Source of the DNA: a virus
Lineage: Duplodnaviria > Caudoviricetes
Reading direction: 5' to 3' (one strand)
Length of the DNA: 49,651 nt
Virus record (IMG/VR): IMGVR_UViG_3300025018_000200
Span: 1-49,651 of that record
The notes under the pieces were generated by a model. That model was not told the origin of the DNA and did not search any database. It saw only the letters and a program-made list of their open reading frames with translations. Positions 525 to 49,246 of this stretch are shown here, piece by piece. How positions within the stretch are numbered: position 1 is the stretch's first letter; each line of letters starts with the position of its first letter. The position numbers and the translations under genes are program-made.

Positions 525-1422
525 CCCCGACGCCTACATCTCGAACGTGGACAGCCCGGAGGAGTACCCCCGGATCAGCGTCACCGAGCTCCGGGACCTG
601 CTCCGCTGCACGAAGAAGCACGACTACGCCTACCGCCAGGGGCTGAAGCCCGTCTCCACCCCCGGCTACTTCGGGAAGGGGCGCTACCTCCACGCCGTCA
701 TGGAGGCCCTGTATTCAGACCTCAAGTCCCGGGGGTCTGGGAGGAAGGGCCCTCGGCCGGAGTTCGGGGGCCTCGGTGCCCGGGCCCTGGCTGCGATGGC
801 CCTGGCCCGGGAGGCCGGGGACCCCTCCTCCGTGGTGGGGGAGCCCGACCGCCTGGAGATCGACGCGGTCGTGGCCGGGTACCTGAAGGAGCTCGACCCC
901 TCCGACATCACCGGGGTGCCGATGGTCGAGCAGGCCTTCTACGCCGACATCGGGCTGGTCAACAGCAACGGGGTCCCGGTCTTGCTCTACGGCTTCATCG
1001 ACGCGGTGCTCGACACCACGGCGGGGAGCTGGCTCGTCGAGCACAAGACCGCCAGCCGCGCCTGGTCGCTGGGGCAGTTCCTCTTCGACTACCAGACCCG
1101 GCTCTACGCCTCGGCCATCGAGGCCATCACCGGCACCCGCCCGCTGGGGACGATGTTCAACTTCTTCTACCCGAAGCGGTGGGAGTCCAAGCTGGTCTAC
1201 GTCACCCCCGAGGAGAGCGCCCTGCTGATCGAGGAGGTGCAGCGGGCCATCTACCTGCGCGACCAGGAGTCCATCGTCCGGCAGCCGCACTGGGGCTGCA
1301 ACGACTGCGGCTTCAAGAACATCTGCCACGCCGAGCTGATCGGGGCCGACTCCGACCACCTCCGCGCCACCGAGTACACCGTCGACCAGGACAAGGTCGA
1401 CCGCTTCAGCCAGGAGGACTGA
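514..1422 (+). CDS. Cas4/RecB-like PD-(D/E)XK exonuclease with a probable Fe-S cluster
   Basis: N-terminal Cys (LRCTKK), GRYLH, GFIDAV...LVEHKT, QTRLY and C-terminal GCNDCGFKNIC; lies upstream of Sak4 and SSB. Confidence 0.85.
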   Translation: MPRDPDAYISNVDSPEEYPRISVTELRDLLRCTKKHDYAYRQGLKPVSTPGYFGKGRYLHAVMEALYSDLKSRGSGRKGPRPEFGGLGARALAAMALAREAGDPSSVVGEPDRLEIDAVVAGYLKELDPSDITGVPMVEQAFYADIGLVNSNGVPVLLYGFIDAVLDTTAGSWLVEHKTASRAWSLGQFLFDYQTRLYASAIEAITGTRPLGTMFNFFYPKRWESKLVYVTPEESALLIEEVQRAIYLRDQESIVRQPHWGCNDCGFKNICHAELIGADSDHLRATEYTVDQDKVDRFSQED

Positions 1423-1775
1423 TGCCCCCGACCGCGTTCAACCTGGAGCCCGCAGCCGCCGAGCCCTCCCGCTACCGGGGGCCCCACATCTACCGGGCGA
1501 TCCCCTGCCTGGATGCCTGGGGCAGCGGGGACGGGACCGACTTCATCACCGGGGTGACCTTGGAGCGCGTCAGCCCCGAGCCCGAGTGGGACCCCATCTT
1601 CGACGACATCGCCGAGGCGGGGACGGACGCCGCCATCCACCTGCCCGAGGGCGGGCTGGTCGTCGGCCAGCTCTACACTGTCCACGTCGAGACCTACACG
1701 GACTGGGAGACCGGCATCGTCGACGACTACGACACCTACATCATGCCCTACGAGGGCACCGAGGAGACCGCATGA
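1422..1775 (+). CDS. Hypothetical acidic protein (MPPTAFNLEP...)
   Basis: TGATG coupling to the upstream gene; AGGAGG RBS. Confidence 0.7.
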   Translation: MPPTAFNLEPAAAEPSRYRGPHIYRAIPCLDAWGSGDGTDFITGVTLERVSPEPEWDPIFDDIAEAGTDAAIHLPEGGLVVGQLYTVHVETYTDWETGIVDDYDTYIMPYEGTEETA

Positions 1776-2572
1776 TCCCGAAGAGCCCGCTCCCGATCTC
1801 CACCCCCGCCGCCCTGCCCCAGTACCCGAACATCCTGCTCGGGGGCGTGGCCGGCGCCGGCAAGACCGCCTTCCTGGGCAGCGTCGGTCCCGACGACAAG
1901 GCCCTGATCCTCGACACCGAGGGGGGCTCGGTCACCTACCAGTCCCGCTGGTTCCTGGAGCAGCCGACCTCGGCCAAGCTCGAGAACCTGCACATCATCG
2001 GGTTCGACGACTGCACCACCGCCCAGGAGGTCGTGCAGCGTGTCGAGGGCACGCTCGACTACCTGATCCGCACGAAGAACAGCGACGGGTACAGCCTCTT
2101 CGCGCTCGACTCGCTCACCGAGTTCCAGCAGAAGTTCCTGTCCCTGCACGCCGCCCCCGACCCCCGGCAGTCCTACGGGGCCCTGAAGGACAGCCTCTAC
2201 AGCATCGTCCACAAGGCCCGGCAGGCCCAGCTGGTGACCGTCTTCACGGCCCGCCTGAAGGCCACCGAGGACGAGGTGCTGAAGCGGGAGATCGTCCGCC
2301 CGGACGTCAGCCCCGCCGTCTGGTCCCTGGTCTCGGGCCTCTTCGACGACATCGGGTTCCTCGACCTCACCGTCCAGGGCGTCACGACCAAGCGCGTCCT
2401 GGACTTCTCGCACCGCGTCCGGCACCAGGGCAAGGACCGCCACGGGTTCGGGTCCCTGGCCAACCCCACCATGATCGAGCTGCTGGAGAAGTTGAAGGGA
2501 GGCACCGCTCCGGCCGCACCCACCCGTCCCGCCCCGCGTCCCCAAGCCCCTCGCCCGGCGCCCCGCGCCTGA
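1772..2572 (+). CDS. Sak4-like (AAA_24) single-strand annealing ATPase
   Basis: Walker A GVAGAGKT, ILDTEGGS, Walker B FALDSLTE and C-terminal GKDR; ATG at 1772 with GAGGAG RBS; sits between the exonuclease and SSB. Confidence 0.85.
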   Translation: MIPKSPLPISTPAALPQYPNILLGGVAGAGKTAFLGSVGPDDKALILDTEGGSVTYQSRWFLEQPTSAKLENLHIIGFDDCTTAQEVVQRVEGTLDYLIRTKNSDGYSLFALDSLTEFQQKFLSLHAAPDPRQSYGALKDSLYSIVHKARQAQLVTVFTARLKATEDEVLKREIVRPDVSPAVWSLVSGLFDDIGFLDLTVQGVTTKRVLDFSHRVRHQGKDRHGFGSLANPTMIELLEKLKGGTAPAAPTRPAPRPQAPRPAPRA

Positions 2573-4052: not shown

Positions 4053-4330
4053 ACCGAAACGACAACGCCTACCGAGGTCGCCTGTTCTCGCAGGGGGCCC
4101 ACTACCTGGTGGGGGAGGGACGCCCCCAGTCCGTCCGCATCCTCGCCACCCGCCCCGCCACCGACACCGAGCCCGCCAAGGTCCTGGTTCGCCACACGGA
4201 CGGGCACGAGCGCCTCGTCCCCCGCGACTGGATCTCGAAGGAGCCGCGCCGCTTCAACCGGAACAGCCCCATCCGCCGGGCCCGACGCGCCGCCGCCCAG
4301 CTCCTGACCGCCTTCGGGGTGCGTGCGTGA
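4049..4330 (+). CDS. Hypothetical protein
   Basis: ATGA overlap; GGGAG RBS. Confidence 0.65.
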   Translation: MNRNDNAYRGRLFSQGAHYLVGEGRPQSVRILATRPATDTEPAKVLVRHTDGHERLVPRDWISKEPRRFNRNSPIRRARRAAAQLLTAFGVRA

Positions 4331-4857
4331 GCGCCCCCTTCCAGAGCTTCGGGAAGATCCCCCGCCTGGCCAAGGTCAACATGGTGGTGACCGAGAAGAT
4401 CGACGGGACCAACGCCTGCGTGGTCATCACCGAGGACGGCGAGGTCTCCGCCCAGTCCCGCACCCGGGTCATCGTGCCGGGGGACGACAACTTCGGCTTC
4501 GCCGCCTGGGTCCAGGAGAACGCCACCGAGCTCCGCGCCCTCGGCCCGGGCTACCACTTCGGGGAATGGTACGGGCGTGGCATCCAGCGCTCCTACCACA
4601 TGCAGGACCGCCGCTTCGCGCTCTTCAACGTCCAGCGCTGGGGCGAGCAGCGCCCGGAGTGCTGCGAGGTCGTCCCCCTCCTGTACCACGGGCCCCTCAG
4701 CACCGAGGAGCTGGACTACCACCTCGACGTCCTGGCCATCTCCGGGTCCCGCATCGACCCCGGGACCCCCGCCGAGGGGGTCATGATCTACCTCACCGCC
4801 ATCGGGACCTACATCAAGCACCCCTTCGATCCGCGCCCCAAGGGAGCCACCCAGTGA
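4327..4857 (+). CDS. RNA ligase (Rnl2-like nucleotidyltransferase domain)
   Basis: FGKIPRL, motif I TEKIDGTN, QSR, DNFGFA, motif III FGEWYG, motif IIIa FALFN, motif IV EGVMI; GTG start at 4327. Confidence 0.85.
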   Translation: MSAPFQSFGKIPRLAKVNMVVTEKIDGTNACVVITEDGEVSAQSRTRVIVPGDDNFGFAAWVQENATELRALGPGYHFGEWYGRGIQRSYHMQDRRFALFNVQRWGEQRPECCEVVPLLYHGPLSTEELDYHLDVLAISGSRIDPGTPAEGVMIYLTAIGTYIKHPFDPRPKGATQ

Positions 4858-5249
4858 ACGACACCCCCGATCCCACCCCCCTCGCCGACTGGGAGGACGT
4901 CACCCTCACCTTGCTCTACGTCAACGGGCGTGAGGTGGGCTCCCAGCAGGTCCGCATCGTCCGCTCCGAGGTCGAGGCGGAAGAGCGGGCCGACGCCACC
5001 GCCCGGGCGCACGAGGTCTATCACCAGGACGACGACCGCCTGGCCGGGGCCCTGGAGGAGATCGCCGAGTGGACCCTGTCCGCCGAGGAGTTCCGCGACC
5101 GCATCCTCCGCAACGCCCAGCGGATGGTCACCAGCCCCGTCCAGGTGGCCGGCAAAGAGCCCCACGAGTTCAAGATCCTCCCCCCGTGGGCGGTGAAGGG
5201 GCTGCTGATCGAGGTCAACAACCTCAAGTCCCGCATCGTCAAGGCCTGA
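4854..5249 (+). CDS. Hypothetical protein (VNDTPDPTPL...)
   Basis: GTGA overlap with the ligase stop; GC3-rich frame. Confidence 0.7.
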   Translation: MNDTPDPTPLADWEDVTLTLLYVNGREVGSQQVRIVRSEVEAEERADATARAHEVYHQDDDRLAGALEEIAEWTLSAEEFRDRILRNAQRMVTSPVQVAGKEPHEFKILPPWAVKGLLIEVNNLKSRIVKA

Positions 5250-5252
5250 CGT

Positions 5253-5471
5253 GTGTTCTCCATCCGCGCCGCCATCGGGGGCTACGTCGTCGAGCGTGTG
5301 GAACCAGTACAGGGCGAGGTTGAGGAAGAAATCGTCTTCACTACCAAAGCTGCTGCACTCGGATTCCTACGAGCCGAGCTTCCTCCCAGCGAAGAAGGCC
5401 CAGATCCAAATGCCGCTGGCGGAGCCCACCCCCAAGGCCCTCGGGATCCGGTGGGAGATGTCTCTCCGTAG
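5253..5471 (+). CDS. Hypothetical protein
   Basis: Fills the gap, but codon usage is atypical and the RBS is weak. Confidence 0.4.
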   Translation: MFSIRAAIGGYVVERVEPVQGEVEEEIVFTTKAAALGFLRAELPPSEEGPDPNAAGGAHPQGPRDPVGDVSP

Positions 5472-5646
5472 GACCCCCCTCCGACACCGCTGCGGGTACG
5501 TCCCCCTCAAGACATGCGCCGATCTTGAGGAGGTCGGGATCCCGCTCCGGCAGATCGGCTCGACACAGGACCTGGGCTACAACGCGGTCATGTTCCAGTG
5601 CCCGGTGTGCCACCAGGTGATGACGGAGCACGAAGCGTACCGATGA
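5458..5646 (+). CDS. Small zinc-ribbon-like protein
   Basis: HRCG...TC...CPVCH motifs; start chosen as ATG 5458. Confidence 0.5.
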   Translation: MSLRRTPLRHRCGYVPLKTCADLEEVGIPLRQIGSTQDLGYNAVMFQCPVCHQVMTEHEAYR

Positions 5647-5825
5647 CCCCCCTCGTCGGCATCTCCTTCTTCGCCATCTTCATCGGGGGCGTGGCCGCCT
5701 TCTTCAACGCCCCCGCCTGGGTCATGGCCGCCACGCTGATCTTCTTCCTGGCCGCCGGCCCGACGTACATCGTGATCACGCGCGTCAGCGATGCCGTCCG
5801 TACCCCCTTGCGCGACTCCCAGTAG
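5643..5825 (+). CDS. Small membrane protein (two hydrophobic segments)
   Basis: MTPLVGISFFAIFIGGVAAFF...WVMAATLIFFLAAGPTYIVI; ATGA overlap. Confidence 0.7.
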   Translation: MTPLVGISFFAIFIGGVAAFFNAPAWVMAATLIFFLAAGPTYIVITRVSDAVRTPLRDSQ

Positions 5826-41760: not shown

Positions 41761-41834
41761 TGGTTGGCCCCCAGGGACTTGAACCCCGACCTCGCGGTTC
41801 AGAGCCGCGCGTCCTGCCGTTGGACTAGGGGCCA
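41761..41834 (-). tRNA. tRNA-Gln, anticodon CTG, CCA encoded
   Basis: TGGCCCC-TA-GTCC AACGGCA GGAC-G-CGCGG CT CTG AA CCGCG-AGGT-CGGGG TTCAAGT CCCTG-GGGGCCA-A-CCA; U1-A72 pair typical of tRNA-Gln. Confidence 0.93.
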
Positions 41835-41961: not shown

Positions 41962-42186
41962 CTAGTCCCGCGCGAAGGGGGAGCTTGACTCGAGGTTCTG
42001 GGGCGCCTGGGGGTAGCCTCGGTAGCCGGCGAAGGGCAGATCGCGGCACAGGGACACGATCTTGGCCTTCGAGGTCCCGAAGACGCCGGCCAGCTTGGCC
42101 ACGGTCCAGTTCTGGGTTGAGCCCCGGAGCGAGTAGAGGCGCCGGATCTCGGCGATCTGGGCGTCAGTCAGCTTGCTTCTGGGCAT
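41962..42186 (-). CDS. HTH DNA-binding protein
   Basis: SKLTDAQIAEIRRLY...TVAKLAGVFGTSKAKI. Confidence 0.7.
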   Translation of the reverse strand: MPRSKLTDAQIAEIRRLYSLRGSTQNWTVAKLAGVFGTSKAKIVSLCRDLPFAGYRGYPQAPQNLESSSPFARD

Positions 42187-42745
42187 GGCGCTCTTTCTGG
42201 CCGGCTCGGTAGCAGGCCTTGCACTGGTGGCGGTAGGGGTCCTTGAGGGTCGGGTAGGCGGCGCGGTAGTAGGCGTCCGGGGGGAGCATCTCGCCGCACA
42301 CGGAGCAGGCCTTGAGGAAGGATCCGTCGGGCTGCTCCTGCCAGCGGGGCGCCAGACGCAGCCGGACGTTCGCCGCGTGCTCCAGGTTCGGCGTCCCGGG
42401 CAGAATCACCCACCCGTGGGCCCTCACGAAGACCCCGGTGCCCGTCGCGGCGAGGAACGGGGCCTGCTCGAGCACCTGGTGGGCCCTTGGATTGGGTCCG
42501 TCGACCAGAAGCACCTTCGCTGGGGTCTCATCGGTCACCAACTTCGTGATCTGGGACTCCGTGGGGGCGTTTCGGACGGTCTTGATGGCCAGGACGGGCT
42601 CGTCGGCGTCCCGGAAGACCTCGAAGTCCCAGAATCCGTAGGTCAAGCGGGCCGAGTAGCCCCTCTCGTGCAGGAAGTTCACGAACTCGATGATCAGCGG
42701 GCGGTCGATCCGGGGTGCGAACGCCTCCAAGTCGTCTCTGAGCAT
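42164..42745 (-). CDS. Hypothetical protein with a C-terminal zinc finger
   Basis: KACSVCGE...CKAC; N-terminal alpha/beta region; GAGAGGAG RBS. Confidence 0.7.
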   Translation of the reverse strand: MLRDDLEAFAPRIDRPLIIEFVNFLHERGYSARLTYGFWDFEVFRDADEPVLAIKTVRNAPTESQITKLVTDETPAKVLLVDGPNPRAHQVLEQAPFLAATGTGVFVRAHGWVILPGTPNLEHAANVRLRLAPRWQEQPDGSFLKACSVCGEMLPPDAYYRAAYPTLKDPYRHQCKACYRAGQKERHAQKQAD

Positions 42746-43370: not shown

Positions 43371-43469
43371 CCTACCAGGGGGGCTGTCGAGCCTTGCGAT
43401 CCCCCACCCCGGTCCTTGGCTTCCGAACGCACCTGGTACTGTCGGTCCTGGGGCTGATCCCCTGACCCC

Positions 43470-43635
43470 TCGACGTGTCGATCCGGTCGACGTGACGACG
43501 TGACGTGTCGACGCCCCTGCCCCCACGTCGACGTGGTGCCACCTCGGTGTGGTGGCCGGGCGCCTCGACTCGACTCGAGCGACGCTGTGAGAGGAGCGCG
43601 TCCTGGACGGCGTTCGCTCGACGCGGCGACGTGGC
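43470..43635. repeat. Cluster of GACGTG/TCGAC short repeats with a 14-bp palindrome
   Basis: GACGTG at 43472, 43489, 43497, 43502, 43530 and 43628; CCACGTCGACGTGG at 43523-43536; CTCGA three times in tandem from 43564. Confidence 0.65.
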
Positions 43636-43746
43636 CGCAACCCGGCTACTACAGGTGGCCCTGCCGGTCGGGCGCCGGACGCGCTCCGGTCAGGCGCCAT
43701 GCGAGGGGCCCTTCAGGCCGTCCAGCACGACATCGGAGGAGGGGGG

Positions 43747-43775
43747 TTGACAAGTCAGGCCCCATGCCCCATACT
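43747..43775 (+). promoter_or_regulatory. Major early promoter
   Basis: TTGACA-17 nt-CATACT. Confidence 0.75.
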
Positions 43776-43781
43776 TTCCTC

Positions 43782-44070
43782 ACGCCCCGCTGAGGGGCAG
43801 ACCGAGGAATCGACCTCGGGGGCTTACGAGCCCGGAAGAGGAGCCCACGCTCCGAGTCGCCGTCAAGCAGCCCGCCCCAGGCGTCGCATCTGGGGCTCCG
43901 ACGGGCGAGGGAGGCTGAGGACGAACACCTGACCGACCGACAGCCGCTCCGACCGGTGACGACACCCCGGTTCCGTACGCCGTGGGGCGAGCCGCTGCAA
44001 CGGGGTCAGGACCTGCTGGGCTTCAAGGCCCAGCGTCGGCGGTAGAGCCCCAGGCTCCTGTCGACCGCAC
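43782..44070 (+). ncRNA. Candidate structured leader/ncRNA
   Basis: About ten consecutive hairpins between the promoter and the first ATG (44171); no credible ORF. Confidence 0.45.
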
Positions 44071-44073
44071 CAC

Positions 44074-44163
44074 GATCACCCCGGCCGGACCCCGCGTCAG
44101 CGACCCGGCCGGTATCTTGCCGCCGCTCCAACGGCGCACCGCTGCCAATCGGCAGCAGGAAGG
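44074..44163 (+). promoter_or_regulatory. Triple-hairpin element, copy 1
   Basis: CCGGCCGG...CCGGCCGG-TATCTTGC-CGCCG ctccaa CGGCG-CACC-GCTGCC aatc GGCAGC-AGGAAGG; ATG at 44171. Confidence 0.75.
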
Positions 44164-44170
44164 CTCCACC

Positions 44171-44482
44171 ATGAGCACCACGACCGCCCGCATCTTCGCC
44201 GAGAACACCGCCTGCCGCCCCGCCCACCACGGCCCGTACACCGTCGCCTCCAGCTACGAGGGCCGCGTCGACCTGTCGCTGCACCTCGGCACCGCCGACA
44301 TCCGCGCGGATCGCTTCGAGACGTTCGCCGTCGTCAAGATGGAGACCCCCTGGACGGCGGACCACGGCGCCCAGGTGGCAATCTTCGTCGACGGGACCGA
44401 GCCCGACTCGCTTGAGGCCGCCGTCGCCCTGCGGGACGCCCTGAACGTCGCCATCCGGCACGCCCGGAAGGTGCCCCGCTAA
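44171..44482 (+). CDS. Early hypothetical protein (MSTTTARIF...)
   Basis: ATG after element copy 1; GC3-rich. Confidence 0.7.
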   Translation: MSTTTARIFAENTACRPAHHGPYTVASSYEGRVDLSLHLGTADIRADRFETFAVVKMETPWTADHGAQVAIFVDGTEPDSLEAAVALRDALNVAIRHARKVPR

Positions 44483-44640
44483 TGCCCGGCTACCAGTCCG
44501 ACCGGGCCCGGCAGCACGCCGAGGGACGCGCTGAGCAGACCCGCCTGGTCTCCGAGGCGGTCGCCGCCATGCGCCCCCTGAAGCGCCGGGTCACCTGGCG
44601 CTGGAACGAGGTCACGATGCGTTACGAGGAGGTCCGCTAA
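44482..44640 (+). CDS. Small early protein (MPGYQSDRAR..., 52 aa)
   Basis: TAATG coupling at both ends. Confidence 0.55.
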   Translation: MPGYQSDRARQHAEGRAEQTRLVSEAVAAMRPLKRRVTWRWNEVTMRYEEVR

Positions 44641-44798
44641 TGCGCCTGCGCTGGATGCGCTGGTACGACGGGTCCTGGACCTGCGCGGCGACGTGGCGCG
44701 GGATTACCTGCCACGGGTCCTCGGTCTCGCGCCGGGTGGCCACGCTCGACGCCGTCCAGAACTGCTACTCTGAGGCCCGCCGGATGGGGCTGAACTGA
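44640..44798 (+). CDS. Small early protein (MRLRWMRWYDG..., 52 aa)
   Basis: TAATG coupling; GGAGG RBS; its stop lies inside the AACTGATCGAC of element copy 2. Confidence 0.55.
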   Translation: MRLRWMRWYDGSWTCAATWRGITCHGSSVSRRVATLDAVQNCYSEARRMGLN

Positions 44799-44874
44799 TC
44801 GACTCGGGCCCTCCGGGGCCCTATCTTGCCGCCGGACCAACCGGCGCACGGGCCCACCTATCGGGCCCAGAAGG
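44793..44874 (+). promoter_or_regulatory. Triple-hairpin element, copy 2
   Basis: AACTGATCGAC-tc-GGGCCC tccg GGGCCC-TATCTTGC-CGCCGG accaa CCGGCG-CAC-GGGCCC acctatc GGGCCC-AGAAGG; ATG at 44883. Confidence 0.85.
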
Positions 44875-44882
44875 AGATCGCC

Positions 44883-45155
44883 ATGAAGGTCTACATCGTC
44901 TCGCCCGGGCACGACTATGAAGGTCTCGGCGCGCCGCTGTGCGCTTGCGCCTCCCTGGAGGCAGCACAGGCCGTTGTGGCCGCGCATGAGGCCGCTGACG
45001 CCGCCATGAACGCCTGGGAGGCTGACCGCCCCTGGCCGCTGCGTCACGACGAGCCCGTGAGCGACGAGCGCATCGCCGCGTGGCGGGCCCGGCAGCCCGC
45101 CCTCAACGTCGGCGCGGACGCCTACGAGATCACCGCCCTGGAGGTCCTGGAATGA
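44883..45155 (+). CDS. Early hypothetical protein (MKVYIVSPGHDYEG...)
   Basis: AAGGAG RBS; YEITALEV end typical of small phage proteins. Confidence 0.7.
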   Translation: MKVYIVSPGHDYEGLGAPLCACASLEAAQAVVAAHEAADAAMNAWEADRPWPLRHDEPVSDERIAAWRARQPALNVGADAYEITALEVLE

Positions 45156-45442
45156 TCAAGCACACCGTCTACGTCCCCGCCCACCTGGCCGAGAAGGCCC
45201 GCGATATCGCCCTGGCGCACGCCGGGGGCGTCACCCTGAGCCCCGGCCACCAGGGCTACTGGCGCGACGACGCTGGCACCCTGCACGTCGACGACATCAC
45301 CCTGGTGACCGTCTTTGAGCGCCTCACCCCCGCCCTGGACCGTATCATCGCGCTCCTCCTCGACTCCGGCGAGCAGTCGGTGGCGTACGAGGTCGGCGGC
45401 ATCCCGTTCCTGACGACCATCCGCCCGGAGGTGCGCTACTGA
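45152..45442 (+). CDS. Putative SAM-lyase-like (SAMase/DUF3574-like) protein
   Basis: GGVT...GYWRDDAGTLHVDDITLV...GEQSVAYEV; ATG at 45152. Confidence 0.45.
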   Translation: MIKHTVYVPAHLAEKARDIALAHAGGVTLSPGHQGYWRDDAGTLHVDDITLVTVFERLTPALDRIIALLLDSGEQSVAYEVGGIPFLTTIRPEVRY

Positions 45443-45705
45443 TGCGGAAGCCTGCGAAGACCACGCCGGTCGCCGTCTGGCCGGACGGGACCACGTCCCA
45501 CGTCACCCGTCGGGGCGGGTTCTGGATGCTCTGGCTGCCCAACGGGCAGCAGCACGGGTCGAGCGACATGCTCGGCGTCAAGGACAACGTCGCCGCCCAC
45601 GGCGGCACGCTGGAGCGGCGTCCGAACCCGCACTACGCCCACCAGCTGCGCGAGTACGAGAACGCCCAGCTGCGCCGGATGTTCGCACCCTACTTCCGCT
45701 TCTGA
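45442..45705 (+). CDS. Early hypothetical protein
   Basis: TGATG coupling; GGAGG RBS. Confidence 0.65.
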   Translation: MRKPAKTTPVAVWPDGTTSHVTRRGGFWMLWLPNGQQHGSSDMLGVKDNVAAHGGTLERRPNPHYAHQLREYENAQLRRMFAPYFRF

Positions 45706-45715
45706 AAGGAGCCCC

Positions 45716-45898
45716 ATGGACACCACCCTGACCACCGTGACGCTGCCCAAGGACCTGATCCCGTACCTCCTGGACATCCTGCAGCGCGAGCGTGAAGCTG
45801 TCACCGGGCATACCCGCCAAGAATACAAGACCCGCCACGAGCTGGACCTGCTGCTCGCCGAGTTCGACACGCCCGGCGTTGTGGACTGGGACAACTGA
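45716..45898 (+). CDS. Early hypothetical protein
   Basis: AAAGGAG RBS; its stop lies inside the AACTGATCGAC of element copy 3. Confidence 0.7.
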   Translation: MDTTLTTVTLPKDLIPYLLDILQREREAVTGHTRQEYKTRHELDLLLAEFDTPGVVDWDN

Positions 45899-45970
45899 TC
45901 GACCGGGGGCTCCGGCCCCCTATCTTGCGCCCGACCAACGGGCACGCCCCCACCTATCGGGGGCCGAAGG
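45893..45970 (+). promoter_or_regulatory. Triple-hairpin element, copy 3
   Basis: AACTGATCGAC-c-GGGGGC tccg GCCCCC-TATCTTGC-GCCCG accaa CGGGC-AC-GCCCCC acctatc GGGGGC-CGAAGG; ATG at 45979. Confidence 0.85.
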
Positions 45971-45978
45971 GACCGACC

Positions 45979-46080
45979 ATGACCGACCTCCAGACCCGCC
46001 AGATCGCCGACGCCTGGGGGGTCGACTTCGCGCAAGTCGTCACCCTGTCCGCCTTTCACCACCGAGAGGAGCACGACTGA
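45979..46080 (+). CDS. Small peptide (MTDLQTRQIADAWG..., 33 aa)
   Basis: ATG after the RBS of element copy 3; TGATG-coupled to the next gene. Confidence 0.55.
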   Translation: MTDLQTRQIADAWGVDFAQVVTLSAFHHREEHD

Positions 46081-46481
46081 TGCCCTACACCACCGTTCAC
46101 CCCAGCCACCGCATGCACGGCATCGTCAACGTCCCGGGCGAGCGCTGCCCCCATGGGGGGTTCGCCATCCACCGACAGCTGGGCGAGGCCCGCGACGCTG
46201 TCGAGCCCGATGGCAAGTGGGTCGTCTCCCACGAGCGCACCGGCTTCCAGGTCGCCGCCTTCGACGACCGCGCCCGGGCCCGCACCTTCGCTCGGGCAGC
46301 GCGCCGACTGGTCGATTACTTCGGGGACGCCGGGCGCTCGGGCGATCTCCGGCCCCTCCGCGAGCACCGCCTGTACCCGGCCCTCCGCAAGCTCACCGAG
46401 TACGCCAACCGCGAGTGGCGGGGCTACCGCTACAGCATCGAACGCAAGGTCGTCGACATCATCGAGGAGGCCCGCGCGTGA
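46080..46481 (+). CDS. Early hypothetical protein (MPYTTVHP...)
   Basis: GAGGAG RBS; FAIHR...KWVVSHERTG pattern. Confidence 0.7.
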   Translation: MPYTTVHPSHRMHGIVNVPGERCPHGGFAIHRQLGEARDAVEPDGKWVVSHERTGFQVAAFDDRARARTFARAARRLVDYFGDAGRSGDLRPLREHRLYPALRKLTEYANREWRGYRYSIERKVVDIIEEARA

Positions 46482-46666
46482 CCCGCACCGAAGTAAAGGA
46501 CACGCTGGACCGCCACGTCTACATGCTGCGCCAGCTGCTGTGGGAGCTGCAGGTCGGGACCCCCACCCCCAGCGCCGTGAAGGTGGCGACCCGGATCGAG
46601 GACGCCATCGACCTGCTCCGATCCGCCCGCCAGGACGCGACCATCATGACCGGGGTCCCGAAGTGA
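46478..46666 (+). CDS. Early hypothetical protein
   Basis: GTGA overlap; GGAGG RBS. Confidence 0.6.
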   Translation: MTRTEVKDTLDRHVYMLRQLLWELQVGTPTPSAVKVATRIEDAIDLLRSARQDATIMTGVPK

Positions 46667-46872
46667 GGGGCCGCGTCGGAGCCATCGAGGTCGTGGTGGT
46701 CTTCGTCGTCACCTTCGCCCTGGTCCTGATCTTCGGGCTCGCCACCCTGCCTGACGAGACCCCCGACCACTGCCCCGCGTTCGCTGCCGAGACCCTGCCC
46801 AACGGGGCCCTGGTGGTCTACCGGGACTGCGGGGACCACATCGTGACCGAGTACCCCTGGAGGGACGAATGA
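46663..46872 (+). CDS. Small membrane-anchored protein
   Basis: GTGA overlap; AIEVVVVFVVTFALVLIFGLA hydrophobic segment; two Cys. Confidence 0.6.
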   Translation: MRGRVGAIEVVVVFVVTFALVLIFGLATLPDETPDHCPAFAAETLPNGALVVYRDCGDHIVTEYPWRDE

Positions 46873-47129
46873 ACAGCAGCCTGACCGCCCACGTCTTCTA
46901 CGTCGCCGACCTGAGCGACGACCTGACCTTCACCGCCGACCAGACCGAGGTCGCGGAGGTCCTGCGCCACCTCGGGAAGGAGAGCCTGCTCCTCACCGGG
47001 GTGGCCCGGGGCATCTACTACCGCAGCGTCGGCGGCCACGACGGGCTCGACCCGGCGGAGATCGTCGAGGCGTACTTCGTCACCACCCCCACCCCCCGGG
47101 CATCCACCCGGGCGCACGAGCTGCTGTGA
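46869..47129 (+). CDS. Early hypothetical protein
   Basis: ATGA overlap; GGAGG RBS. Confidence 0.65.
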   Translation: MNSSLTAHVFYVADLSDDLTFTADQTEVAEVLRHLGKESLLLTGVARGIYYRSVGGHDGLDPAEIVEAYFVTTPTPRASTRAHELL

Positions 47130-47140
47130 AGGAGGCACCC

Positions 47141-47353
47141 GTGTTCGACATCGAGACCATCGAGCTGCTGCAGGACCTGGTGGAGCGGCGCATCACCAAC
47201 GTGTTGATGGAGAAGCGTGCTGCCCCCAGCCGCCCGGACTGGGCCCGACGCACCCTCCGGGAGATCGACGACGAGCTGCTCAAGCTCTACAACGCCGCCA
47301 AGGAGCTGCGCGTGGCCTGGGACGAGTTCGACATCGAGCAGGCGGTGGGCTGA
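47141..47353 (+). CDS. Early hypothetical coiled-coil protein
   Basis: GTG at 47141 after AAGGAGG (alternative start 47126). Confidence 0.65.
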   Translation: MFDIETIELLQDLVERRITNVLMEKRAAPSRPDWARRTLREIDDELLKLYNAAKELRVAWDEFDIEQAVG

Positions 47354-47712
47354 TGCCGGAGTACCGCATCACCGCCGACGTCCTCCTGAAGGACACCTAC
47401 GAGGGGGTCCAGGAGGGCTCGAGCGAGGCCGAGGCCCGGCGCCTGTTCGTCGAGCGCGTCAAGGCGGAGGACTTCGACGAGCACCCCGTGGTGCAGGTCC
47501 AGATCACTGGCATCTCCCGGCTCCCGGAGCGCAGCGCCCCCGATGACCTGTGGCGCCTGGAGCTGGCCACCCAGGTGAAGGGCGGCTCCCTGCTGGACAT
47601 CCAGACCGTCCGCGTCGACCGGCTCGCGGACACCATCAACCTCGCCCTGCGGAAGGGCCAGCGCGTCAACAGCCTGACCCCCCTCTTCTCCCCCTCCATG
47701 AACGGAGCCTGA
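47353..47712 (+). CDS. Early hypothetical protein
   Basis: TGATG coupling; GC3-rich. Confidence 0.65.
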   Translation: MPEYRITADVLLKDTYEGVQEGSSEAEARRLFVERVKAEDFDEHPVVQVQITGISRLPERSAPDDLWRLELATQVKGGSLLDIQTVRVDRLADTINLALRKGQRVNSLTPLFSPSMNGA

Positions 47713-47714
47713 CT

Positions 47715-47942
47715 ATGGGGTTCTACACGCAAGGCAAGGCACGCCAGCTGGGCGCGTGGAGCATGACCTCCCCCGCCGCCCCCCTCTGGGACCTCTCCAA
47801 GCGCGAGCTGATCGAGATCGCGCTGCACCTGGCCTCGCTCCTGACCGACGAGGACGACGCGGACGAGGCCCTGCGGAATGGGGCTGCCGCCCAGCGGGTC
47901 CTGGACGAGCGTTACGCCCTCAAGCGTGCGAAGCTGATCTGA
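47715..47942 (+). CDS. Early hypothetical protein (MGFYTQGKAR...)
   Basis: ATG at 47715 after GGAG. Confidence 0.65.
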   Translation: MGFYTQGKARQLGAWSMTSPAAPLWDLSKRELIEIALHLASLLTDEDDADEALRNGAAAQRVLDERYALKRAKLI

Positions 47943-48133
47943 TGGGCATCCTCCGTGACCTCGACCGCATCCGCGAGCTGTGCCCCGACACCCACCTGAC
48001 CCTGTTCTCACGCTGGGAGGACGTGATCGACCGCCTCCGGCGAGGGCATCCCCTCAAGGCTCAGGACCGAGAGGACCTGCGGATGGACGTCGACGACGCC
48101 CTCGGCGGGCTGATGGACGACGACCTGCTCTGA
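47942..48133 (+). CDS. Early hypothetical protein (MGILRDLDR...)
   Basis: TGATG coupling. Confidence 0.6.
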   Translation: MGILRDLDRIRELCPDTHLTLFSRWEDVIDRLRRGHPLKAQDREDLRMDVDDALGGLMDDDLL

Positions 48134-48137
48134 CCCC

Positions 48138-48179
48138 TTGACACGGGGCCCCCCGGTGTGAGCATACTGGGGGGTCCCC
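48138..48179 (+). promoter_or_regulatory. Internal promoter overlapped by an inverted repeat
   Basis: TTGACA-19 nt-CATACT; spacer and -10 lie inside GGGGCCCCCCGGTGTG/CATACTGGGGGGTCCCC; a second TTGACA at 48199. Confidence 0.5.
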
Positions 48180-48235
48180 GGAATCCGGGGAGCGCACCTT
48201 GACAACCGAATGAGTCGACCTGAAAGGAGGCCCTC

Positions 48236-48957: not shown

Positions 48958-49246
48958 CAGCACGGGTGACGGGGAGTACATCGAGGCGCTGGAAGCCGAG
49001 GTCGAGCGGTTGCGGGCGCTCGTACCCACCGACGAAGAGAACGCCGAGGTCGTCAGGCTCAAGGAGGAGTACCTGCGCTTGCGTCAGCGCATCCCGGACC
49101 CGGACGACCTGCGGGCCTGCGTCCAGATGCTCACCTACAGCATCCGGGAGACCGACTTCGATGGCGATGGGAACCCCGGCGTGGTTGCCCTACGCGACCG
49201 CCTTCGCGCCACTCTACCGACGACGAAGGGAGAGGATGATGTCTGA
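48950..49246 (+). CDS. Hypothetical coiled-coil protein
   Basis: GTG at 48950 after GGAGG; YIEALEAEVERLR. Confidence 0.6.
   Translation: MLDSTGDGEYIEALEAEVERLRALVPTDEENAEVVRLKEEYLRLRQRIPDPDDLRACVQMLTYSIRETDFDGDGNPGVVALRDRLRATLPTTKGEDDV

Follow-up and report, generated by a model that had tools for sequence, protein, structure and literature searches.

A repeated three-hairpin element heading early gene blocks of a tailed phage and its possible role in mRNA processing

The 49,651-nt stretch of viral DNA analyzed here (the window; IMG/VR record IMGVR_UViG_3300025018_000200, positions 1 to 49,651; Duplodnaviria, Caudoviricetes) contains three copies of a compact three-hairpin element, each heading a block of small and presumably early genes. 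The element has the order P1 hairpin, UAUCUUGC linker, P2, AC, P3, ribosome-binding site, and AUG, and is a real, conserved motif that is uncatalogued in Rfam 15 and belongs to none of the families tested. It recurs in two related phages, and in another relative the equivalent slot is occupied by three hammerhead ribozymes, which suggests that the element likely marks a cut in early mRNA and protects the resulting ends. Our preferred reading, held tentatively with a probability of about 0.35, is that of an early-mRNA processing and stabilizing module that would be cut in the linker by a host single-strand endoribonuclease.

Architecture, conservation, and distribution of the element

All three copies are on the plus strand of the 49.6-kb genome. 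Copy 1 (44074 to 44173) consists of P1 at 44081 to 44112, with a 16-nt insert, the linker at 44113 to 44120, P2 at 44121 to 44136, P3 at 44141 to 44156, GAAGG at 44159 to 44163, and the ATG at 44171. Copy 2 (44793 to 44885) includes the stop codon TGA of the upstream gene (44796 to 44798), followed by P1 (44806 to 44821), the linker (44822 to 44829), P2 (44830 to 44846), P3 (44850 to 44868), GAAGG (44870 to 44874), and the ATG at 44883. Copy 3 (45893 to 45981) is built likewise, with TGA at 45896 to 45898, P1 at 45905 to 45920, the linker at 45921 to 45928, P2 at 45929 to 45943, P3 at 45946 to 45964, GAAGG at 45966 to 45970, and the ATG at 45979. The GAAGG-to-ATG distances are 7, 8, and 8 nt in copies 1, 2, and 3, and TATCTTGC occurs three times in the window, always on the plus strand and always inside the element (44113, 44822, and 45921).

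The preliminary description of this DNA had placed the same triple-hairpin layout at three sites, and the nine stems, both linkers, the GAAGG motifs, and the start codons are all as placed; its further points that copies 2 and 3 supply the stop codon of the upstream gene and that the stems differ in sequence and stay Watson-Crick (54 of 54 pairs in the window) also hold. It had given (AACT)GATC as the head of each copy, of which AACT is found in copies 2 and 3 only and the 5' GATC is not kept in relatives, and it had called both linkers and loops conserved, which is true of the linkers, the loops being only partly kept. A structural descriptor requiring a P1 of at least 4 pairs that runs up to the linker, at least 5 pairs in each of P2 and P3, and AC between them accepts all three real linkers and none of the 217 linker sites found in 300 simulated first-order Markov genomes; together with the RNA folding z-scores of copies 1, 2, and 3 (-4.1, -3.8, and -3.1), this indicates that the three-copy structure is not due to chance.

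Related loci were collected through the primase, with 78 homologues at E<=1e-20 and an alignment of 67 sequences that was used to fetch viral and metagenome loci. L001, L009, and L017 were left out as records of the same phage (L001 is 100% identical over 2400 nt), as were the duplicates L019 (of L011) and L024 (of L013). Five loci reach at least 3.9 kb upstream of the primase (L011, L013, L022, L027, and L029), and the element is present in two of these, as two clean copies and one degenerate one: L011 (primase, 68%) has a clean copy (L011a), a degenerate copy (L011b), and one partial unit, and L013 (primase, 51%) has a single clean copy (L013a). The L029 sequence stops where its early genes start. 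Structural conservation in relatives had been proposed as a check, and the element does recur in both relatives with compensatory changes and no Rfam match, in agreement with the proposal that it is a selected structure of no recognized family. Gene content between copies, a second proposed check, differs between the window and L011.

The five clean copies have an identical linker that starts 58 to 61 nt 5' of the start codon, and the end of P3 is separated from the start codon by 14, 14, 14, 14, and 16 nt, the last in L013. In this small sample of five copies, with hand-chosen helices, 12 of 14 base-anchored stem columns have two or three pair types and all 70 cells are Watson-Crick; P1 is the most variable stem, and P2 and P3 stay at 5 to 6 pairs. 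Linker invariance is partly circular, because the relatives' copies were spotted partly through the linker. A sequence-only model built from six copies and run against 14 sources found only those six well (next best, E=0.03), and the L013a and L011b folds are not significant alone (z = -0.9 and -1.4). Three G-U pairs are present, all in L011 helices, two of them closing an ACCUAUC loop that is also seen in copies 2 and 3, and a cUCCGg loop caps P1 twice (copies 2 and 3). The stability of UNCG loops is a textbook feature of RNA. Judged from these sequence features, the G-U pairs and cUCCGg loops favor sense-strand RNA as the active form.

Two observations in relatives bear on the form of the element. 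Partial units consisting of a long hairpin, a shortened middle, a hairpin, a Shine-Dalgarno (SD) sequence, and ATG are located on the minus strand at ~2401 in L027 and ~1975 in L011, and may be shrunken forms of it. A conserved structured noncoding stretch of ~330 nt that starts with GTGYG follows a second early promoter in L013 (~5330 to 5780, minus strand) and L027 (~1530 to 1960, minus strand), with a mean column identity of 79%, changes to both partners in 27 of 103 predicted pairs, and no Rfam match. It contains a CUUGC-hairpin-AC-hairpin-AGA part that is loosely element-like, and is possibly a large noncoding RNA or intron-derived RNA.

Searching the window with Rfam 15 returns only a tRNA at curated cut-offs and, with E allowed to reach 10, no match at the copies, and the element is unmatched by the RAGATH, HDV-like, pistol, hatchet, and riboswitch models that Rfam includes. 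Exact-pattern scans of IMG/VR, returning 3, 3, 121 (36 of 64 parts), 43, and 14 stretches, revealed no member outside the family, and among the stretches inspected the full architecture is seen only in this phage's copies and L011a. L011a is the positive control of the 14-stretch scan and is outside the gap range of the 43-stretch scan, and L013a fits no pattern. Four non-family sites (L069, L071, L081, and L165) pass a loose descriptor, with stems that are GU-rich or long-looped. A Sak4 alignment provided no new close relatives (4 loci, 23 to 30%), and 36 of 64 parts of GTDB contained no prophage relative (3 loci, 22 to 30%). The motif was not found in the literature searched, with a prior computational listing being possible in a survey of 10,000 candidate phage RNAs whose supplements are searchable in part (PMC10690425). 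Contigs of two DNA runs contain no variant and no joint at the element copies, and are uninformative on mini-circles.

Hammerheads in the same slot and the possible roles of the element

In L022 (primase, 53% identical), three type II hammerheads head the first three early genes in the syntenic slot. Two score above the Rfam cut-off and one at 29.4 bits (RF02276), and the predicted cut is 52 nt before the AUG in all three. Two begin directly after a stop codon, sharing the stop and its flank as copies 2 and 3 do, and the third heads a 55-aa gene of a family that we refer to as 'RDEQ'; a hidden Markov model of four members matches this L022 open reading frame (ORF) at E=2e-6 among 1242 ORF segments, and in L011 the RDEQ gene is directly behind the degenerate element copy. 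The element was not found in L022, and hammerhead searches of the window, L011, and L013 gave none, such that none of the phages examined has both. We note that the first L022 hammerhead (944 to 1069, minus strand) has a long stem III insert and a leader of ~450 nt after the early promoter.

A hammerhead has CUGANGA and GAAA core strands lining a three-helix junction, with cleavage at an NUH site. The element is not itself a hammerhead: CTGANGA is inside none of the copies, GAAA is absent, and there is no Rfam match, while those of L022 are detected. The sole hammerhead-like block is an 8-nt CTGATCGA outside P1 in copies 2 and 3, where by inspection stems II and III cannot form in C-S-G order (not circularly permuted), and the three other copies are without the block. 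Clustered hammerheads flanking phage and prophage genes are known (Perreault et al. 2011, PMC3088659), and a halovirus hammerhead is located 13 nt 5' of a start codon, its cut site being close to the mapped end of the mRNA (PMC3088659). A role in polycistronic mRNA processing has been suggested, not demonstrated, for such hammerheads, and unrelated ribozyme classes can occupy common loci (PMC6765202).

An RNA-processing signal was among the roles suggested at the outset, and it is the one supported by the L022 hammerheads. In the processing reading, host sigma70 RNA polymerase would produce one long early transcript from 43747, in which the element would define a cut within the exposed UAUCUUGC linker, ~55 to 58 nt before the AUG. 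The upstream piece would keep P1 as a 3' cap, and the downstream piece would carry P2-P3 as a 5' cap beside a free Shine-Dalgarno sequence, giving each gene block its own stabilized, translation-ready mRNA, a job presumably done by self-cleavage in L022. Because the copies repeat, they could also be recombination points for gene gain and loss, as a by-product. We consider a host endoribonuclease a likelier cutting agent than self-cleavage, because there are few unpaired invariant bases and no conserved pseudoknot, the linker is predicted to be mostly open in the window's copies, and there is precedent in the cip-cel operon, where intergenic stem-loops both signal cleavage and stabilize the ends (PMC10311766). 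The pseudoknot was sought by inspection, and a pairing of loop-2 CC with the SD GG is possible in four copies and not in L013a. The mycobacterial RNase E site is RN↓CNU (PMC10641625), cut in single-stranded RNA, and AU↓CUU fits it in all six linkers, with the qualification that the motif may not be that of the host.

Several observations weigh against this processing role. The RNase E motif is irrelevant if the host is Gram-negative, as the GH108 lysin suggests, and an invariant 8-mer exceeds the need of a loose RNase E preference. The slot comparison involves one relative only (L022), and L027 has neither a clean element nor a hammerhead within 4.7 kb. The L013 copy is the least accommodating, in that it begins just 43 nt past a -10 box without an upstream gene to protect, has a weak P1 (z = -0.9), and has as its P3 one of seven copies of a genome-wide palindrome that is also present inside ORFs.

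The main rival is an anti-Shine-Dalgarno switch, which we regard as unlikely, albeit the best placed of the competitors. The linker UCUU would pair with the SD region, enclosing P2 and P3 in a three-way junction, to be released by a protein, a ligand, or a cut. A linker-SD pairing of 4 to 5 bp is possible in all five clean copies, and UCU is fully pairable with the 3 nt directly after P3 in four of the five; the switch would account for half of the invariant linker and for the 14-nt P3-to-AUG distance that is fixed in four of five copies (16 nt in L013). The predicted pairing reaches 0.44 in L011a and 0.6 to 0.9 in L013a, but for linker positions +1 to +4 against the 3' tail it is at most 0.07 in copies 1 and 3 and at most 0.28 in copy 2. 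There is no compensatory change and the register shifts among copies, U/C tracts generally pair with purine-rich SD sequences, and P1 is left unexplained.

It is doubtful that the element is a small ribozyme of a new self-cleaving type, possibly with a rearranged twister-like fold, acting as the autonomous equivalent of the L022 hammerheads. We give no better odds to the variant in which a twister-related fold, with P1 on the 5' side and a nested junction for pseudoknots, would replace the hammerhead and link cutting to ribosome-binding site exposure. Slot and putative cut-to-AUG distance are like those of the L022 hammerheads, and there is precedent for unrelated classes at common loci (PMC6765202, section 5). 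The succession of UA by P1, 4 nt, GC, a hairpin with a CCAA or CCAC loop, an extra hairpin, and a purine tract resembles the twister blocks (PMC8501958), and P1 is dispensable in twister (PMC5408937). UA adjoins P1 in all five clean copies (AA in the degenerate one), and for the 4-bp twister P2, UCUU could pair with the purine tail in several registers, using bases needed for T1. The GC/GC pseudoknot is impossible, however, as GC has no spacer after it and the loop contains no GC; also absent is GAGGG, with its catalytic general-base G, the tail of the element being GAAGG or AGAUUGGAG. The twister models RF03160, RF02684, and RF03154 are silent at E<=10 in all three records, and there are few invariant unpaired bases. 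Among RAGATH motifs only 3 of 36 turned out to be catalytic (PMC11061315), and hunts for further twister permutations are reported to have found none (PMC10085705).

Less probable again is a composite like the promoter early stem-loops (PeSLs), in which TATCTT would be a -10 box, P1 would be in the spacer or act as an attenuator, and transcription would restart at each copy. Copies 2 and 3 have the layout for this, with stop codon, TCGACY (4 of 6 positions), 17 or 16 nt including P1, TATCTT, SD, and ATG, which is the commonest PeSL layout (PMC2839356). The earlier comparison with PeSL elements fits in layout to that extent, in two of six copies, and fails in the other four, which match the -35 at only 1 to 3 of 6 positions with spacings of 16 to 19. 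No copy has an extended -10 TG, the clear promoters of this phage family use TTGAC, and the promoter scan called none at the copies. A start 7 nt after TATCTT would be within the P2 5' arm, yet the arm is conserved; the L013 copy directly follows a real promoter; and no terminator is called at any copy.

Antitermination and single-stranded DNA (ssDNA) roles are the worst-fitting readings. The former, a cis-acting pause or antitermination signal for elongating RNA polymerase or an N-like protein, presumably in the manner of put and nut sites, is very unlikely: the first copies are 43 to 337 nt past the early promoter and their hairpins are linked by short conserved linkers, but element position is tied to the start codon and not to the promoter, there are few terminators for read-through (2 called versus 2.0 expected), and a distinct word that we take to be boxA-like is present at 48198.

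We give least credence to a role as ssDNA, either as an attC-like recombination site or as an N4-type hairpin promoter. All three hairpins can also form in DNA, on either strand (z, -3.9 to -4.7), window stems are purely Watson-Crick, and gene content between copies varies as noted. The proposal that the structure could form in ssDNA stands on energetic grounds, but a role in that form is disfavored by the G-U pairs in L011, the cUCCGg loops, and the fixed start-codon spacing. An integron attC-like boundary fails: scored with IUPAC motifs that we take to represent the cores, a complete core pair is present in none of six copies (one inverse core is near the degenerate copy only), and a PF00589 integrase is absent from the record (control, 14/14). 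The N4 virion RNA polymerase promoter is a template-strand hairpin with a 3-nt loop. Here the P2 and P3 loops are 4 to 7 nt and the shortest P1 loop is 4 nt, no phage RNA polymerase is found by PHROGs, Pfam, or PDB sequence searches (the PF00940 search being without a working control), and the largest ORF (1176 aa) resembles virion proteins, such that the hairpin promoter has no support.

Genome context and the early region

The window has a terminal overlap of 173 nt and is a whole or nearly whole phage genome, although IMG/VR classes the record as linear and 58% complete. It codes for a family A DNA polymerase, a primase-helicase, terminase, portal, major capsid protein, and the GH108 lysin (PHROGs/Pfam), the last suggesting a Gram-negative host as far as gene content can indicate. 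There is no close cultured relative by tblastn, with all matches below 60% and 22 to 34% among the matches listed.

A sigma70-type promoter (TTGACA-17-CATACT, 10 of 12 consensus positions) at 43747 to 43775 on the plus strand likely drives the early transcript; the promoter scan of the window called three sites versus 0.3 expected, and relatives have a TTGAC-type promoter at the equivalent place. The preliminary description had each copy heading an 'early' gene block, and the heading is confirmed, 'early' being our designation from the position behind this promoter. A structured leader of ~300 nt (43776 to 44080, plus strand) precedes copy 1 and has few 8- to 9-mers in common with the L011 leader. 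Block 1 (44171 to 44798) contains three overlapping small ORFs of 103, 52, and 52 aa, the second of which is the RDEQ ORF (44482 to 44640), with homologues in L011, L013, L027, and L022. Block 2 (44883 to 45898) has four small ORFs of 90, 96, 87, and 60 aa, and block 3 (45979 to 48133) has nine, mostly with stop/start overlaps, all on the plus strand; none of the ORFs in the three blocks has a PHROGs match, nor do any of the 18 small ORFs of the early run. Only two of the 15 gene junctions between 44171 and 48133 have gaps longer than 11 nt, and element copies (2 and 3) occupy both.

Other features of the flanking DNA are noted for completeness. On the plus strand at 48138 to 48235 is a second promoter-like site (TTGACA-19-CATACT), whose spacer contains an inverted repeat; a hairpin follows, and then the presumed boxA-like word at 48198, 5' of the next ribosome-binding site. 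Between the divergent promoters, a cluster of GTCGAC/CGACGT words (43430 to 43700; 9 versus 0.7 expected) follows an AT-richer, strand-skewed stretch common to all relatives, and is likely a physical genome end or packaging region; DNA run X1 differs from the window there by three bases and one gap. Short pieces of 48979 to 49230 are common to several X1 contigs, with joints skipping 71 to 81 nt, and their source may be L013, which has a similar gene. A 193-aa gene (42164 to 42745, minus strand) adjoins the divergent promoter and is kept in all six relatives compared (31 to 47%); it has a C-terminal zinc-finger/endonuclease VII-like match, and a weak PD-(D/E)XK resolvase likeness that is a lead only. 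The single tRNA-Gln(CTG) gene is at 41761 to 41834 on the minus strand, and L029 has an 11-tRNA cluster at the equivalent place (4076 to 5078).

Operator-like palindromes, also within ORFs, are present in the early regions of L013 and L027, with GTTAKCA-N2-TGMTAAC seven times in L013 and three times in L027, and TTTAG-N2-4-CTAAA six times in L027. L013 and L027 also have an extra first early gene of 170 to 200 aa that is absent from the window, L011, and L022, and its product could bind these palindromes.

Significance and comparison with known systems

It is not settled why phages set self-cleaving ribozymes ahead of small early genes (PMC6765202), and another structure occupying the hammerhead slot, ahead of the same gene family, amounts to a natural swap experiment. 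Cutting of the element would mean that the slot calls for a processed 5' end, and the lack of a cut that it calls for something different, for example insulation or translational control. The five 65- to 85-nt copies are ready ribozyme candidates, and even if not catalytic the element would add a compact new RNA motif, possibly usable as a 5'/3' insulator part. Slot-sharing logic of this type earlier yielded twister sister, pistol, and hatchet.

The closest parallels are the phage hammerheads (PMC3088659; RF02276, L022), which are likewise repeated structured RNAs set behind a stop codon and ahead of the following SD in an early region; those of L022 also have a comparable AUG distance and head the same small gene family. 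The element differs in having three side-by-side hairpins and no hammerhead core, and its cleavage is hypothetical. With twister (RF03160, RF03154, and RF02684) it has in common the block order, UA beside P1, GC, and a CCAA-type loop, but both pseudoknots, L2 GC with L4 GC and L4 with L1, are missing, as is the catalytic G block, and it matches none of the models. Like RAGATH-type motifs, it is a structured RNA of unestablished action in a ribozyme-associated gene neighborhood, in one case, the RDEQ family having a hammerhead at its head in L022 and the degenerate copy there in L011. Unlike them, it matches no Rfam or RAGATH model and is so far restricted to one phage family.

The early RNase III sites of T7, which we take to be selective processing and stabilization stem-loops, can be named beside those of cip-cel as akin to the element. 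The cip-cel stem-loops for selective processing and stabilization of RNA (SRPS) are intergenic and GC-rich (PMC10311766), and the element, like them, could direct a cut and cap both products; it differs in being a three-hairpin unit that recurs and has an invariant linker, compared with one long hairpin, and is known from sequence alone. The PeSL cassettes of T4-like phages (PMC2839356, PMC4122927) are also repeated stop-hairpin-SD-start units among small ORFans, and copies 2 and 3 similarly have a stem-loop between -35-like and -10-like words. PeSLs have consensus sigma70 promoters and working terminators, whereas a -35 is missing from four of the six element copies, and nothing in PeSLs corresponds to P2-P3. 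The DUF1874 motif (PMC5737381, section 23) is multistem, is located in consecutive intergenic regions, and has no integrase, as is true of the element; it centers on a conserved internal loop, whereas the element has a different structure and no Rfam match. By analogy with these systems, the general kind to which the element belongs is already known, namely early phage operons punctuated by ribozymes or hairpins.

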